A DNA stretch of 64,000 nucleotides from positions 101,436,687-101,500,686 of the forward strand of contig NC_092372.1 of assembly GCF_030028105.1 (NCBI RefSeq). The letters run 5' to 3'. The notes under the pieces are model-generated. The model made no database searches, was not told where the DNA came from, and saw nothing but the letters and a program-made list of their open reading frames with translations. Shown here in pieces: positions 12,545-43,875 of the stretch. The stretch is from Mobula birostris (Eukaryota). Numbering within the stretch: position 1 is the stretch's first letter; every line of letters starts with the position of its first letter. A program made the position numbers and the translations under genes.

Positions 12545-13600
12545 GCTGGCTATGTCAGAAAGATAGACCCATTCAATTGTACAACAGACAACTGGTTCAT
12601 GTATACTAAGTGAATTAAGCAGTACTTTGAAGCAAATAAAATAGCCAATGAAAAGCATCTGCCAGTTTTGCTGAGTGCATTGGCTGAAAAAGCACACAAT
12701 TTGCTTACATATTTAACTGCTCCAACCAAACCAGCTGAAATAAACTTTGCTGATATGATAAAATTAATTCAAGAGATTTAGATTCAAAACCATTATTGAT
12801 TGCAGAATGTCTTAGGTTTCATAAATGGAATCAAAAGACAAAACATCAATTTCAGCATGTGAGCCTGAATTGAAGAGATTCTCTGAGCATGGCCAGTTCA
12901 GTAATGGACTCAATGATGCACTGAAAGATCATTTAGGACTAACAAGGAACATTTACAATCTTACAAGAGAGCGTTCAAAAACAGTTCCTAACTGAAGCAC
13001 TACTTACATCACAAGTGGGCACGTGGCCAAGTGGTAAAGGCACTCAACTAGCGACCTGAAGGTTGTGAGTTCAAGCCCCAGCTGAGGCAACGTGTTGTGT
13101 CCTTGAGTAAGGCACTTAACCACATATTGCTCTGCGATGATACTAGTGCCAAGCTGTATGGGTCCTAATGCCCTTTCCTTGGACAACATTGGTGTCGTGG
13201 AGAGGGGAGACTTGTAGCATGGGTAACTGCCGGTCTTCCATACAACCTTGCCCAGGGTTGCGCCCTGGAGAGTGAAGACTTTCCAGGTGCAGATCCATGG
13301 TTTTGCAAGACTAACGGATGGTTTTATGATTATACTTACAAACATTTGTGCATCTAAAAGAGTGGTTGAAATCACTGTATCAATGGAAACAACAAACACA
13401 GAGACAATTGATTTGCAGTCATAAATGAAAGTGAGCATGAATAAGTTTTCAATGTCTAAACAGAAACTTGCCTAGCTGAACAAATAGTGTTACTGTTATG
13501 GCAGGGTCTCACATACACCTGACCACTCCAGGTTTAGAAATGAAACCTGCAGAGAATGCAATAACATAGGACACAGGAAAGAGAAAATCAAGTTGCAGTT
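12545..13600 (+). pseudogene. Gypsy gag relic, interrupted by a SINE at 13015-13325
   Basis: IKQYFEANKI, LLTYLTAPTKPAEINFADMIKL, KPLLIAECLRFHKWNQ, QFSNGLNDALKDHL, ILQESVQKQFLTE; many stops. Confidence 0.75.
13015..13325 (+). mobile_element. tRNA-derived CORE-type SINE, nested in gag
   Basis: A box TGGCCAAGTGG, B box GAGTTCAAGCC, CORE-like TGTGTCCTTGAGTAAGGCACTTAACC; possible TSD TACTTACA (13001-13008, 13333-13340); sister copy at 57027. Confidence 0.85.
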
Positions 13601-13875
13601 CCAAAAGGAGCACTAATCTATATGTTGTTGATAAAAAAAAATCTGATAATGATGAGAGACTGGTAAAATTGAGATTTACAATGTGAAAGCTAACAATGGA
13701 CAAACAATATGGCTTACACCAAAAGTGAGCAGGAAATTAATTATAATGTAATTGTACACTGGCTCAGCTGTTCCAGTCACTTCATGAAATGTGTTTGAAT
13801 GACATTTCAAGGATACTGAACTGAAACCCAGTGATATCCCACTAATAATTTGTCTGGAGGAAAGATAACCCATGT

Positions 13876-13913
13876 TAGTCCTGACGAAGGGTCTCGGCCT
13901 GAAACGTCGACTG
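13876..13913 (+). ncRNA. Minimal type-I hammerhead ribozyme with intact core
   Basis: Stem I AGTC(13877-80)/GACT(13909-12); CTGACGA 13881-87; stem II AGG/CCT (13888-90/13898-900); GAAA 13901-04; loopless palindromic stem III ACGT; GTC cleavage triplet ending at 13908. Confidence 0.85.
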
Positions 13914-14010
13914 CACCTCTTCCTAGAGATGCTGCCTGGCCTGCTGCGTTCACCAGCAACTTTGATGTGTGTTGCTTGAATTTCCAGCATCTGCAGAATT
14001 CCTGTTGTTT
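13876..14010 (+). mobile_element. 135-bp Penelope-derived insertion carrying a hammerhead, nested in Gypsy pol
   Basis: TSD CCATGT at 13870-13875 and 14011-14016; homologous to the terminal repeat of the GIY-YIG element at 24137-24230 (minus strand). Confidence 0.88.
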
Positions 14011-16854
14011 CCATGTGTGAATGACATTTGTAATAGTGAAATACGATAACCTTGACTGGCTAAGACAATTAAAACTTGATTGGAGATCCATCCACCATTT
14101 GCATGTCTCACATCCTGCAACAGAGTCAACTGACAGTGAATTAAGGGCAGTGATAGATAATGTCACAGCAGTGTTCAAAGATGGAATTGGAAAACACAGC
14201 ATACCAAGGGTAAAATAGTGTTAAATGAAAATGCCACACCCAAGTTTTACAAAAACCCATCCAGTTCCTTATACTATCTATCATAAAGAAATCAGTAACC
14301 TAGAATGCATGGAGGCTGAAGGAATTCTTTCCGAGGCCACCTGAGCCCATGAGCAACACCAGTGTTCCCAGTAACCAAGGTAAATGTGTCTATCAGGATC
14401 TATGTTGATTTTAAGGTCACTATCAACCCAGTACTAAAAGTTGATCAATACCCCTTGCCCAGGATAGAGGATATCTTTGCAAACCTTTCTGGTGGGAAAC
14501 ATCTCAGCAAAGTGGACTTAGCTGAGGTCTGCTTACAGAATGAGATTGAAGAAGAGTCCAAAGTGTTTCTCACAAAGGACTTTACCACTATAACAGGTTT
14601 ATTTTTGGAGTACTGTCTGGCAGAAAGCTATGGACCAGCTGCTGCAAGGCTGCACAGGTTCTCAGTGTTACTGGTAAGGATGACGAGGAACATCTCCGAT
14701 ATCTCAAGATAGCGTTAAAAAGATTAGATTATAGGCTCAGAGTACAATACAACGAGTATGAATTCGTTAAACCAAGCATCACTTACTGTGGTCACACCAT
14801 TGACGCACAGGCATTACACAAGTGTATAAAGCCCCAAGGCCAAATATCGTGTCCTTTTTTGCAGTCCTTTTTCAGATTTGTCAATTACTACAATAGCTTT
14901 CTGCCAAACCTTGCTCCTGTGCTCCGCCCCTTGAACTTATTACTACAGGAGTGGCAGTGGACAAAGCAGTGTGAGGTTGTTTTCCAAAGGGCAAAGAAAA
15001 GGATGATGGCAGACTCTGTTCTCACACATTACGACCCACATCATCCAGTGAAGCTTGCTTGTGATGCCTCATCTTATGATATATATGCAGTAATGTCACA
15101 TGTCATGAGTGATGAATGTGAACATCTCATAGTCTTTGTAGCATGGTCCCTTAACACTGCACAGAAAAATTACACACAGATTTACAGAGAGGTCTTGAGT
15201 CTGGTTTGGGGTGTAAAACATTTCAACCAGTATTTGTATGGGATTGAGCTAACTCTCATTACTGGTCACCCATCTCTAGTGTGTATTTTCAATCCACAGG
15301 AGGGTGTTCCACTAACAGCAGAGATGAGCTCTGTTTCCTGGAGGACACAATTACAGCTAATCATGGAAATGATGATTGATTCTCCCATTTACTCATGGAA
15401 AAGGAAATACCAGAAAATTTACAAGAAACAATACTCTTCTTAACATATCCTCCCTAATGCAAACCAGAAGTCTCCCTATTACAGCAGAGATGATACAAAG
15501 GGAAACCAGAAAAGACCCCACATTGTTTCAGGTCTATGTGGCCACCTAAAATGGCTGGAGTGTGCAGCAGAAATTCCATTTCCTCCATTTTCACCAGTGC
15601 TGGGATAAACTTGCCATTGATGGGGGTGGGGGGGGGGGGGTTCCTTATGTAGGGATTGAAAGTTGTTGTACAATCCAATCTGAGAGCTATAGTGTTGGAG
15701 GAGCCACGTGTCGGTCATCTAGGTGTGGTCAGAATGAAAGCATTAGTTCAAAGCTTTGTCTGGAGGCCTGGGATAGATCAGTAGATCAGGCTGTTGTTAT
15801 GTACTGTTTGGGATGCCTACATGTCCAGAAGATGCTTAGAACTCTCCATCACTGGGAATGGCTGCATTGCCCTAGCAGAGGACTCATGTGGATTCTGCTG
15901 GAGCATTCACGGCAAATTTCTTGGTAGTAGTGGATGCAGCTACAAAGTAGCCAGAAGTGTTCCCAACAGCCTCCACTACAGCCTCGCATACTATTGATGT
16001 GTTGAGAAGCCTCTCTCAAGGACCAGTGTTCCAGAACACTTAACCATTCACAATGGACTACAGTTTGTTGTGGAACTGTTTCCGTCATTCCTGCGAATGA
16101 ATGGAATAAGACATATTGCATCTGCACCATACCATTCAGCTACAATTGGCTTGGCAGAAAGATTTACCCAGAGTCTAAAGAATGCACTGCGAGGAATGTC
16201 AGCAGAACACACTACACTAACACTGAATCAGAAGCTCACCATTTTTCTCCTTGCAATTCTCAATGCAGCATGCTAAACAACCAACAATTCACCAGCCATG
16301 TTGTTCCTGGTTCATTCCTTAAGCTCACACTTGGATGTCATCAAGCCCAGTCTCAGAGGGAGCATGCAGGACAACCAGCTGAGACAAATTAAGGTCACCT
16401 TAGACAAGGAGGATCGATGTTTCACGTCTGGATAAGCAATTCTGGCGAAGCATTACGGAGACGATCAAAAGTGGGTGCTCCAAAAGATTAAGGACAGAAC
16501 TGGACCAATCTCCTACCCAGTAGAGGTTGGGTCTGTTGTCATTTAGAGATAACACATCGATAATCGTGAAAAATATAGCCTGGAGCTGTCAGAGCCTTCT
16601 CCTGTAGTGCTAGAGTCAACTCTTACAACCACTACAGAGGAGGCCCCAGAACTTGCGGTTGCTTCACAGACACATTTCTCCTTCCAAGCAGACTTGTCAG
16701 GAAAGATGTTATCCTACAAGAGTAAGAAATCCTCCACAGTGATTAAATTTTTAGGCTTGAATGGTACAATTTAACAGTTAAAATGCTGTAGAAGACCATC
16801 GTAATATAGTTGATATAGTTGAGATGCATTCTATATTCAGTTGCAGTATCCGTC

Positions 16855-24000: not shown

Positions 24001-24136
24001 GGGCCGCAGCCTCCAAAAATAGGATGTTCACTAAATAAGGAGGAAAAGGGAGAGTTATGGCACAGAATAGTGAGGGAGAAGATGAGAAGAAAAATAGATG
24101 AGTTAACAATACAGTACCAATTACAATATCTGAGTA

Positions 24137-24860
24137 ACAGACACAAAATGCTGGAGGAACTCTGCAGGCCAAGCAGCAACCAGGAAAAGAGTACAGTCAA
24201 CGTTTTGGACCAAAACCCTTCAGCAAGACTGGAAAAAAAAAGCTGGGAGTAGATTTAAAAGGTGGGTGAAGGGGAGAGAGAAACACAAGGTGATAGATGA
24301 AACCTAAAGGGGGGAGTGGATGAAGTAAAGAACTGGGAAGTAAATAGGTAAAAGAGACAGAAGGCCATGGAGGAAAGAAAGGGGGGGGGGGAGAACACCA
24401 GAGGGAGGCATGGGTAGGCCAGGAAATAAGGTGAGAGAGGGAAAAGGGGATGGAAAACAGTGAAGGAGAAGGAGTGGGGGGGCATTACCGGAAGTTTGAG
24501 AAATCAATGTTCATACCATCAGGTTGGAGGCTACCCAAGTGGAATATAAGGTGTTGTTCCTCCAACCTAAGTGTGGCCTCATCACAACAGTGGAGGAGGG
24601 GCCATGGATAGACATATTGGAATGGGAATGGGAGGCAGAGTTAAAATGGGTGACCACTGGGAGATCCCACTTCCTTTGGCGGACAGAGCGTAGATGCTCG
24701 GCAAAGCGGTCTCCCAATCTACGTTGGGTCTCACTGATATCCAGGAAGCCACACCAAGAGCACCCGACACAGTATATGACCCCAACAGACTCACAGATGA
24801 AGGTGTCACCTCATATTCCATTTGGGTAGCCTCCAACCTGATAGCATACAACAATTTCTA
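24137..24860 (-). mobile_element. Penelope-like element 3' end: GIY-YIG endonuclease plus terminal repeat with mutated hammerhead
   Basis: LGDRFAEHLRSVRQRKWDLPVVTHFNSASHSHSNMSIHG..LRLEEQHLIFHLGSLQPDGMNIDFSNF; pyrimidine-rich UTR; CAGTC-TTGCTGA-AGGGTTTTGGTCC-AAAACGTT-GACTG (~24194-24231). Confidence 0.88.
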
Positions 24861-41109: not shown

Positions 41110-43875
41110 ACCGAAGGTTTAAAGTGCAGCTATTTTAACGCAAGGAATGTTGTGAACAAAGCGGATGAACTCAGAGCATGGATCAGTACTTGGAGATATA
41201 ATGTGGTGGCCATTACAGAGACTTGCATAGCTCAGGGACAGGAATGGTTACTTTAAGTGCTGGGTTTCAGATGTTTCAGATAGGATAGGGAGGGAGGCAA
41301 AAGAGGTGGGGGCGAGGCACTGTTGATCAGAGATAGTGTCACGACTGCAGAATAGGTGGATGCCATGGAGGGATTGTTTACGGTGTCTCTGTGGGTGGAG
41401 GTTAGGAACAGGAAGGGATCAATAACTTTACTGGGTGTTTTTTATAGGCCTCAATAGTAAAAGGGATATCGAGGAGCAGATAGGGAAACAGATCCTGGAA
41501 AGGTGTAATAACAGCAGAGTTGCTGTGATGGGAGATTTTAATTTCCCAAATATCGATTGGCATCTCCCTAGATCAAAGGGATTAGACGGTTTGTTTGGTG
41601 TGTTCAGGAAAGGTTCTTGACACAATATGTGGATAAGCCTACAAGAGGAGAGGCTGTACTTGATCTGGTATTGGGAAATGAACCTGGTCAAGTGTCAGAT
41701 CTCTCAGTGGGAGAGCATTTTGGAGATAGTGATCATAATTCTGTCTCCTTTACATTAGCATTGGAGAGAGATAGGAACAGACAAGTTAGAAAAGTGTTTA
41801 ATTGGAGTAAGGGGAATAATGAGGCTATCGGGCAGGAAATTGGAAGCTTAAACTGGAAACCGATGTTCTCAGGGCAAAGTACGGAAGAAATGTGGCAAAT
41901 GTCCAGGGGATGTTTGTGTGGAGTTCTGTATAGGTACATTCCAATGAGACAGGGAAGTTATGGTAGGGAACAGGAACTGTGGTGTACAAAGGCTGTAATA
42001 AATCTAGTCAAGAAGAAAAGAAAAACTTACAAAAGGTTCAGAGAGCTAGGTAAAGTTAGAGATCAAGAAGATTATAAGGCTAACAGGAAGGAGCTTAAGA
42101 AGGAAATTAGGAGAGCCAGAAGCGGCCATGAGAAGGCCTTGGTGGGCAGGATTAAGGAAAACCCCAAGGCATTCTACAAGTATGTGAAGGGCAAGAGGAT
42201 AAGATGTAAAAGAATAGGGCCTATCAAGTGTGACAGTGGGAAAGTGTGTATGGAACCGGAGGAAATAGCAGGTTTACTTAATGAATACTTTACTTCAGTA
42301 TTCACGATGGAAAAGGATCTTGGTGATTGTAGTGATGACTTGTAGCAGACTGAAAAGCTAGAGCATATAGATATTAAGAAAGAGGATATGCTGGAGCTTT
42401 TGAAAAGTGTTAAGTTGGATAAGTCACCGGGACTGGATGAGATGTACCCCAGGCTACTGTGGGAGGTGAGGGAAGAGATTGCTGAGCCTCTGGCGATGAT
42501 CTTTGCATCATCAGTGAGGTCGGGAGAGGTTCCGGAGGATTGGAGGGTTGCGGATGTTTTTCCTTTATTCAAGAAAGTGAGTAGAGATAGCCCAGGAAAT
42601 TATAGGCCACTGAGTCTTACTTCAGTGGTTGGTAAGTTGATGGAGAAGATCCTAAGAGGCAGAATTTATGAGCATTTGGAGAGGCATAATATGATTAGAA
42701 ATAGTCAGTATGGCTTTACCAAATGCAGGTCATACCTAACAAGCCTGATAGAATTTTTTGAGGATATGACTAAACACATTGATGAAGGAAGAGCAGTAGA
42801 TGTAGTGTATATGGATTTCAGCAAGGCATTTGATAAGGTACCCTATGCAAGGCTATTGAGAAAGTAAGGAGGCATGGGATCCAAGGGGAAATTGCTTTGT
42901 GGATCCAGAACTGACTTGCCCACAGAAGGTTGTAGACGAGTCACTTTCTGCATGGAGGTCGGTCACCAATGGAGTGCCTCAGGGATCTGTTCTGGGACCC
43001 TTTCTCTTTGTGATTTTTATAAATGACCTGGATGAGGAAGTGGAGGGATGGGTTAGAAAGTTTGCTGATGACACAGAGGTTGGAGGTGTTGTGGATAGTG
43101 TGGAGGGCTATCAGAGGTTACAGTGGGACATTGATAGGATGCACAACTGGGCTGAGAAGTGTCAGATGGAGTTCAACCCAGATAAGTGTGAAATGGTTCA
43201 TTTTGGTAGGTCAAATATGATGGCAGAATATAATATTAATGGTAAGACTCTTGGCAGTGTGGAGGATCAGAGGGATCTTGGGGTCCAAGTCCACAGGACA
43301 CTCAAAGCAGCTGAGTGGGTTGACTCTGTGGTTAAGAAGGTGTACGGTGTATTGGCCTTCATCAATCATGGGATTGAGTTTAGGAGCCAAGAGGTAATGT
43401 TGCAGCTATATAGGACCCTGGTCAGACCCCACTTGGAGTACTGTGCTTAGTTCTGGTCGCCTCACTACAAGAAGGATGTGGAAGCCATAGAAAGGGTGAA
43501 GAGATTTACAAGGATGTTGCCTGGATTGGGAGCATGCCTTATGAGAATAGGTTGAGTGAACTTGGCCTTTTCTCTTTGGAGCGACGGAACATGAGAGGTG
43601 ACTTGATAGAGGTGTACAAGATGATGAGAGGCATTGATCGTGTGGATAGTCAGAGGCTTTTTCCCAGGGCTGAAATGGTTGCCACAAGAGCACACAGGTT
43701 TAAGGTGCTGGGGAGTAGCTATGGAGGAGATGTCAGGGGTAAGTTTTTTACGCAGAGAGTAGTGAGTGCGTGGAATGGGCTGCTGGCAACAGTGGTGGAG
43801 GTGGGTACGATAGGGTCTTTTAAGAGACTTTTGGATAGGTACATGGAGCTTAGAAAAATAGAGGGCTATAGGTAA
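41110..43875 (+). pseudogene. CR1 ORF2 (APE endonuclease and reverse transcriptase)
   Basis: YFNARNVVNK, VAITET, MGDFNFPNIDW, GDSDHNS; NYRPLSLTSVVGK, YMDFSKAFDKVP, GVPQGSVLGP, KFADDT. Confidence 0.95.

Follow-up and report, generated by a model that had tools for sequence, protein, structure and literature searches.

A 135-bp hammerhead-bearing insertion in Mobula birostris as a probable run-off copy of a Penelope-like element

A 64,000-nt stretch of the Mobula birostris genome (NCBI RefSeq assembly GCF_030028105.1, contig NC_092372.1, positions 101,436,687 to 101,500,686 of the forward strand; hereafter the window) contains a 135-bp insertion that lies in a decayed Gypsy-type pol region and opens with a minimal hammerhead ribozyme motif. 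Judged by its sequence, the insert is the pseudo-long-terminal-repeat (pLTR) end plus tail of a very abundant endonuclease-containing (EN+) Penelope-like element (PLE) that still has intact copies. We consider it probable that the insert is a run-off copy of this element, made from an RNA that would start at the first base of hammerhead stem I (A2), and that duplicates elsewhere in the genome, in which the cleavage nucleotide C17 is joined to A2, represent captured 5′ cleavage products. The parentage, the copy number, the distributions of copy ends, the target duplications, the frequent head-to-head pairs, and the rare C17-to-start duplicates can all be read directly from the genome. Positions within the insert are given below as unit numbers, unit n being window position 13875 + n; A2 is 13877, and C17 is unit 33. 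Most of the published studies were available to us as excerpts, and statements about them refer to those excerpts.

Results

Insertion Site and Parent Element

The insert is flanked on both sides by CCATGT, as an earlier note on this DNA had described, and the site is empty in relatives of the host Gypsy copy (about 80% identical, range 78–82%), where the target is present once. Six of 11 aligned relatives show a single 140-nt gap at 13869/70–14008/9, in three this gap is 130 nt long or broken up, and two do not align across the site. The left duplication ends in GT, which equally fits the bases upstream in the element itself, and the 5′ end of the insert is therefore placed at unit −1 to +1. 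Stops and frame changes are numerous in the heavily decayed host pol, which has an RT-RNaseH Pfam match at 14550–15440. Near ~14050, just 3′ of the insertion, it is without ~36–62 bp that are present in the aligned relatives. The insert looks young, in agreement with the earlier note: it differs from the 3′ repeat of the intact element L152 at 2 of 135 bases, and all five of its CpGs are kept.

Copies in the 4.0-Gb genome were located by exact patterns. An exact 55-mer of the unit occurs 5,270 times, and an exact 33-mer (unit 56–88) occurs 55,762 times; the first 100 matches of the latter (contig 1, 0.1–5.4 Mb), mapped on the natural copy L152, are called anchors. The exact 55-mer of the insert stands at the head of copies extending for at least 1.45 kb into reverse transcriptase (RT)/endonuclease sequence, and the sequence 5′ of many copies is common to them and encodes RT and GIY-YIG motifs. 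A protein search with the N-terminal part gave 8,788 genomic candidates, and among 20 long-frame loci fetched, L151 and L152 have stop-free frames (1116 and 1114 codons) and carry the unit at each end. The identity of the unit to both terminal repeats of these two elements, 98–99%, supports the proposal made earlier that this is a Penelope-mobilised insertion with a Penelope-type minimal hammerhead.

In L151 and L152, the motifs YIDD and LYIGET lie in one reading frame, giving RT and then GIY-YIG within one open reading frame (ORF), and the first ATG of the long frame is ~40 nt past the tail. The protein P0001 (1089 aa) matches RVT_1 (E 2.8e-5) and GIY-YIG (E 1.1e-3), neither reaching the curated Pfam cut-off, and has hundreds of relatives with the same architecture, the closest named one being a bamboo-shark protein (71%). 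Between RT and endonuclease, P0001 carries the linker CKRNRCYTC (CX4CxxC); a CX2-5CxxC linker is described as a mark of Neptune and Nematis elements (PMC8557442), and the parent element would, by this linker motif alone, be assigned to the Neptune/Nematis clade. Partial-tandem pLTRs, inverted 5′ arms, and an optional tail are all present (L151, L152, L122, L123, and the anchors). The ORF also contains a ~210-bp direct duplication before the RT, a Pro/Ser-rich segment (N-terminal region of L065; P0001 residues ~215–355).

Positions at Which Copies Begin and End

The 5′ ends of the 100 anchors, counted with both arms of inverted pairs, fall at unit 1–5 in 21 cases, at 6–22 in 17, at 23–32 in none, at 33–55 in four, and upstream in 58. 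The pile-up at unit 1–5, which is also seen in 8 of the 52 non-inverted anchors, is ~50-fold over a background of 0.09 per nt (Poisson p ~4e-28), and its upstream edge is sharp, with just one 5′ end at unit −10 to 0. The earlier note had held that random truncation without enrichment at the hammerhead boundary would make this an ordinary truncated Penelope; the tabulation instead reveals enrichment there. Short copies have their boundary on the 5′ strand of stem I, which places it 31 nt upstream of the cut. In the whole genome, a base other than T precedes A2 in 3,770 exact cores; 87 of these were inspected, comprising 74 true junctions, six long copies with a point change, and seven members of other families. 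In contigs of two other runs (possibly DNA), the loose ends at unit 3 are heterogeneous; the 41 loose ends that X7 has at unit 2 come from a related family whose upstream sequence differs and were left out of the count. Both A2 and A−2 follow a pyrimidine, and A2 lies in a YYANWYY context that we take to be initiator-like, as we do the context of A−2.

The 3′ ends of the anchors are bimodal, with 41 of 100 in the pLTR-end class and 44 of 100 in the tail-end class (unit ranges in Table 1). Target duplications of 8–16 nt flank 17 of the 52 non-inverted anchors, and an inverted partner is present for the other 48 of the 100. The two arms of a head-to-head pair usually have different ends, one at unit ~100 and one at ~135, and often both reach unit 2–6 (L070, L094, L109, L111, L113, and others); the two arm ends fit priming of both target ends at two start sites. 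The haplotype spectrum at unit 25, 39, 51, and 89, the four variable columns compared, is the same in 38 short and 50 long copies. The unit continues into the ORF in 70 of 98 copies, 41 of which extend at least 800 nt; 31 of those 41 reach the 5′ hammerhead, where 26 run on upstream and five stop at unit 1–22.

Duplicates Joining C17 to the Start

Direct repetition of unit 2–33 before A2 was first seen in two copies. A genome-wide junction pattern covering donor ends at unit 30–39 gave 55 matches, with C17-to-base-6 and C17-to-base-4 joins falling outside these counts. Exact C17|A2 joins make up 21 of the 55, at 19 loci; in another 12, either C17 is followed by a few added bases or the acceptor lies at −1 to −3, for a total of 33 ending at C17, eight carry G in place of C17, and 14 are of other kinds. 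The donor end is at unit 32–33 in 41 of the 55 matches (binomial against 10%, p 3e-8). In all 41 matches that end at C17 or one base earlier, the upstream duplicate is at most 35 nt long and starts between −2 and 21; by contrast, 58 of 96 ordinary copies pass upstream of the start. A wider control covering donors 19–35 again has C17 as the commonest donor (9 of 43), followed by classes of four matches each with 1-nt microhomology; four matches resemble an unrelated repeat. Among loci not chosen for the junction pattern, donor 33 appears in three of eight rows. Among the joints listed for contigs of four runs (possibly DNA) on L152:4900-5900, there is no C17|A2 joint and one 36-to-2 joint.

Exact C17|A2 joins occur on at least six haplotypes and in one diverged family, which indicates independent events and rules out a single founder. 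At three loci the join is repeated, twice in tandem and once on both arms. The join has no microhomology; its simplest source would be a free RNA of ~32–36 nt with its 5′ end at A2 or A−2 and its 3′ end at C17, and such an RNA would be what lies 5′ of the cut when the hammerhead cleaves a transcript that begins at A2 or A−2. The C17|A2 duplicates may constitute in vivo evidence of PLE hammerhead cleavage, which according to PMC4209133 did not exist.

Haplotypes with C at unit 39 account for most of the joins to A−2 or C−3 (11 of 13; L238, L245, L250, L253, L257, L259, L303, L307, L315, L316), which suggests that the preferred start base differs between source elements; six of these joins have a non-native G before A−2. 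Short head-to-tail partial tandems were also observed, with a 73-bp period in L119 (G000:C1:59379275-59379402) and a ~39-bp period in L342; they are possible seeds of retrozyme-like arrays.

Hammerhead Core and Predicted Fold

The insert begins with a complete minimal type-I hammerhead, with all core bases as the earlier note gave them and with the predicted cut after 13908 correctly placed by sequence and hammerhead numbering. A minimal-hammerhead descriptor has exactly one match in the 64-kb window compared with 0.01 per shuffled window (100 shuffles). The CUGANGA/GAAA/UH core, helices I and II, a palindromic loopless helix III, and an unpaired base before helix II, which characterize PLE minimal hammerheads, are all found, and the G10.1-C11.1 pair is absent from the insert, which has U at 11.1, as do 71 of 100 anchors (C in 23 of 100). 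The stem II register AGG/CCT proposed previously has a pair probability of 0.02 versus 0.87–0.97 for G13889 paired with U13900 and A13888 unpaired; apart from the pairing of G10.1 with U, the latter agrees with the published layout of PLE minimal hammerheads. Rfam hammerhead models, put forward as a check, have no match in 13000–15000 even at E ≤ 5, and the folding energy is no better than that of shuffled sequences (z −0.44 and −0.74). The core and palindrome are intact in 48 of the 75 anchors that cover them, and a covariation comparison across families reveals hardly any paired changes, the stems being the same in related families.

As a monomer, the motif is predicted to misfold, with GACG (13883–13886) paired to CGUC (13905–13908) in an inactive helix (p ~0.98). 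The earlier suggestion that the insertion adds a self-cleavage site to its host RNA is unlikely to matter, given a dead host Gypsy, a monomer that is predicted to misfold, and the lack of in vitro cleavage by a single minimal motif (PMC4209133). It is also unlikely that this single insertion in a dead Gypsy copy does anything.

Discussion

Proposed Cycle

The copy ends and junctions are consistent with a cycle in which transcription would start at A2, with a minor start at A−2, in the upstream pLTR; the D. virilis Penelope promoter and start have likewise been placed inside the pLTR (PMC2377424). The GIY-YIG domain would cut the target, and the RT would prime, frequently at the two target ends alike, at unit ~100 or ~135. 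On RNAs that begin at the start site, cDNA would run off at A2 and leave solo copies of 100–135 bp; the insert in the window would have been made by an RT that started internally, ~135 nt from the transcript 5′ end, and ran off that end. In some RNAs, the hammerhead would cut after C17, probably either with the help of protein or as a dimer formed through the ACGU palindrome, modes of cleavage reported for related motifs (PMC4209133, PMC11167929, PMC6765202), and release a 32–36-nt leader onto which the RT would occasionally jump end to end, giving the C17-to-A2 duplicates. The templates of most long copies would have no end at A2, being read-through RNA or the circularised monomer proposed in PMC4209133, which the data do not separate. 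By analogy with the requirement for downstream template reported in PMC11167929, solo copies are probably dead ends.

Several observations weigh against this cycle. Stops at unit 1–22 are rarer at the 5′ hammerhead than at the 3′ repeat (5 of 31 versus 38 of 96, Fisher p 0.017), such that a simple model with A2 as the start of every RNA fails and templates of two classes have to be assumed. The 3′ cleavage product has left no pile of 5′ ends at G34 (0 of 100 anchors, 2 of 70 ORF-continuing copies). A pattern for G34 gave 1,021 matches, and 30 inspected loci resolved into 19 point changes and 11 junctions, most of the latter explained by overlap with an inverted arm and ~3 of them clean. There are also no indels at the 33|34 step in ~307 copies. 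Other donors than C17 exist (34 of 43 in the 19–35 window; 12 of 55 at 30–31 or 34–38), as does the 73-bp tandem of L119. The 5′ boundary falls where stem I ends, a point at which some copies fold back. An untemplated G beside A2, as a cap signature would leave, is present in five of nine informative solo junctions, which is only suggestive. An excess of G at C17, considered as a signature of the jump or of a ribozyme-dead sublineage, was rejected: a control CpG has the same G bias with more matches (736 versus 500). At the two sites tested, CpG cytosines in the Penelope family become G ~4 times as frequently as they become A.

Alternative Origins of the Boundary

The A2 boundary could instead have been made at the cDNA or DNA level, with stem I cDNA folding back or being joined by repair, so that the RT would stop there although its template continues upstream, and the C17 joins arising as by-products of repair or template switching linked to the GTCGAC palindrome. 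We regard this origin as unlikely. It would account for a boundary at the end of stem I, for the fold-back products listed in Table 1, for the 26 of 38 short arms that stand in inverted pairs, and for the palindrome centred on 33|34, and C is the commonest letter before A2 (46 of 100 listed), as a one-base fold-back extension would give. A probabilistic stop, however, predicts that ~60% of the duplicates run upstream, and 0 of 41 do; it should also act equally at the 5′ repeat of long copies, where it is weaker, as described above. Moreover, the C17|A2 joins have no microhomology, other C donors (24, 30, 36) were used only once or twice each, and the second boundary, A−2, is not at a stem end.

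The earlier note suggested an independent, non-autonomous family, resembling short interspersed nuclear elements (SINEs) or retrozymes, in which the 135-bp unit would itself be transcribed and re-mobilised by Penelope protein. The fixed 5′ boundary with target duplications, the thousands of copies starting at A2, and a report that animal retrozymes derive from pLTRs (bioRxiv 10.64898/2026.07.22.740005, excerpt) speak for such a family, and we nevertheless find it improbable. Of the features expected of a SINE-like family, the defined 5′ end and target duplications are found, whereas a diagnostic lineage of its own is absent at the four columns: short copies share their haplotypes with long ones and are nearly identical to intact elements, and 58 of 100 copies continue upstream into the element. 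Head-to-tail tandem monomers, as in retrozymes, are likewise lacking, with a single copy in the window, anchors that are solo, inverted, or long, and only rare partial tandems of 32–73 bp among the loci examined. The cut lies inside the unit and not at its ends, and activity of the anole element needs template downstream of its start sites (PMC11167929), which by analogy solo copies would lack. A 3′ splice site just upstream of helix I, with short copies from spliced or splice-site-broken RNA, is a very improbable source. In D. virilis Penelope an intron ends at the 5′ end of helix I (PMC4209133), long copies here have acceptor-like sequence (a pyrimidine tract and CAG at unit −3 to −1, with a second AG at 2–3), and a few junctions use unit 0; against this, the junctions have no common upstream exon and are immediately bordered by target duplications or inverted arms, none of the 21 pile-up copies begins at 0 and 16 of them keep G3 or more, and precise joins use A2 and A−2 rather than T0 (joins to T4 lie outside the search pattern). 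That the insert is an ordinary, randomly 5′-truncated Penelope fragment ending at the hammerhead by chance is scarcely credible: the 58 anchors that are variably truncated upstream are what it predicts, but the ~50-fold pile-up and its hard upstream edge are not, and the genome-wide count of 3,770 argues that the first 5.4 Mb of contig 1 is not unrepresentative.

Implications

Run-off from A2 with capture of a cleaved leader can be extended to a fuller scheme, in which a capped leader is captured by the RT after germ-line cleavage at C17, uncut RNAs give run-off copies, and cut-and-circularised monomers give full-length and partial-tandem copies; all of this together is a tentative proposal that we think somewhat doubtful. 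The pLTR hammerheads, tails, inverted arms, and dispersed single motifs of Penelope elements are already published, and both element and ribozyme belong to known kinds. The role of the hammerhead in PLEs has been stated to be unclear (PMC8557442), and the family-level pattern makes this open question directly testable: tens of thousands of young copies yield nucleotide-precise predictions of capped A2/A−2 ends, cyclic-phosphate C17 ends, and possibly a 3.7-kb circle. If the fuller scheme is correct, the genome is a fossil record of the Penelope RNA cycle, pLTR regeneration, called unexplained in PMC2377424, gains a mechanism, and the duplicates are, within the literature searched, the first trace of a PLE hammerhead acting in vivo. 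That literature, mostly non-subscription, described no fixed stem I boundary and no C17-ended duplicates, and an Anolis coverage figure (PMC11167929) may already show a 5′ pile-up. A caution follows for annotation, in that ribozyme units with a fixed boundary and flanking target duplications can resemble SINEs and yet are likely by-products of their parent.

Features of the Window

Besides the features collected in Table 1, the window holds an older, 71%-identical, 5′-truncated copy of a related Penelope family at 24133–24813 (minus strand, ~0.7 kb) with a decayed hammerhead core. A reverse transcriptase of the long interspersed nuclear element (LINE) type, broken into several frames, lies at 41572–43875 (plus strand; RVT_1 matches at 42346–42864 and 42860–43447), and strong opposite GC skews at 34–36 kb and 40–44 kb suggest two LINE-type elements facing opposite ways.

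Table 1. Features of the insertion, its hammerhead motif, and its host in window coordinates
Feature	Position	Strand	Remark
Host: old, decayed Gypsy-type pol region	13600..16600 (approximate limits)	+	Same orientation as insert; relatives 78–82% identical
Left target-site duplication, CCATGT	13870..13875	+	Single copy at empty site in Gypsy relatives
135-bp insertion: pseudo-LTR end plus tail of an autonomous, putatively Neptune-type PLE	13876..14010	+	98–99% identical to both terminal repeats of L151 and L152
Stem I, 5′ strand, AGTC	13877..13880	+	A13877 (unit A2): fixed 5′ boundary of short copies, candidate RNA 5′ end
Catalytic core CUGACGA (C3–A9) and unpaired A before stem II	13881..13888	+	CTGACGA at 13881–13887
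Stem-loop II, GGGU/GCCU with CUCG loop	13889..13900	+	
GAAA, loopless palindromic stem III (ACGU), and GUC triplet	13901..13908	+	GAAA at 13901–13904, ACGT at 13904–13907, GTC ends at 13908; predicted cut after C13908 (C17)
Stem I, 3′ strand, GACU	13909..13912	+	Fold-back point of some head-to-head inverted copies (L200, L274, L282, L289)
Two 3′ end classes, unit 95–108 (pLTR end) and 134–144 (tail end)	13970..14010	+	Candidate RT start sites, by analogy with PMC11167929
Right target-site duplication, CCATGT	14011..14016	+	Matches left duplication; single at empty site

Comparison with Known Systems

The parent element resembles the EN+ PLEs Neptune and Nematis (PMC8557442) in its single long RT-then-GIY-YIG ORF with a CX4CxxC linker before the nuclease, its partial-tandem pLTRs, inverted 5′-truncated arms, optional 30–40-bp tail, and pLTR hammerhead. 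It differs in the length of its ORF (1089 aa) and its duplicated Pro/Ser-rich segment, and in the fixed 5′ boundary at stem I, which the excerpt does not describe for those elements. The motif itself is like the minimal hammerheads of metazoan PLEs (PMC4209133), which are type I without a helix III loop, have palindromic positions 15.2–16.2 and an unpaired base before stem II, and are mostly dispersed as single motifs attributed to truncated PLEs; unlike these, it has a short stem II (4 bp) with G10.1 opposite U11.1 in the major haplotype.

The one PLE studied biochemically, Poseidon PAc of Anolis (PMC11167929), similarly has two internal RT start sites that bracket the tail, priming on both target strands, a hammerhead 5′ of the start sites, and uncleaved RNA as the main template. 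The PAc ORF starts inside the hammerhead, in contrast to the ATG past the tail found here; its authors found no RNA sequencing reads ending at the cut, and the excerpt of the main text does not describe the 5′-end pile-ups seen here. Animal non-LTR retrozymes (PMC7229834; Li, Clavereau, Pollet 2026 preprint) share the pLTR relationship, the type I hammerhead, the lack of coding sequence, and the many monomeric copies, but they are described as tandem 150–450-bp monomers with canonical hammerheads and circular RNA. The unit described here is dispersed, solo or head-to-head, and not separated from its autonomous parent.

The proposed cycle would work much like two further systems. In retroviral minus-strand strong-stop DNA synthesis, priming occurs near the 5′ end of the RNA and the cDNA runs off there, although in the present case synthesis would be target-primed rather than tRNA-primed, and no RNase H domain was seen in the element. 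R2-type RTs make end-to-end template jumps onto a free RNA 3′ end, as the Penelope RT would when it captures the leader released by cleavage after C17.

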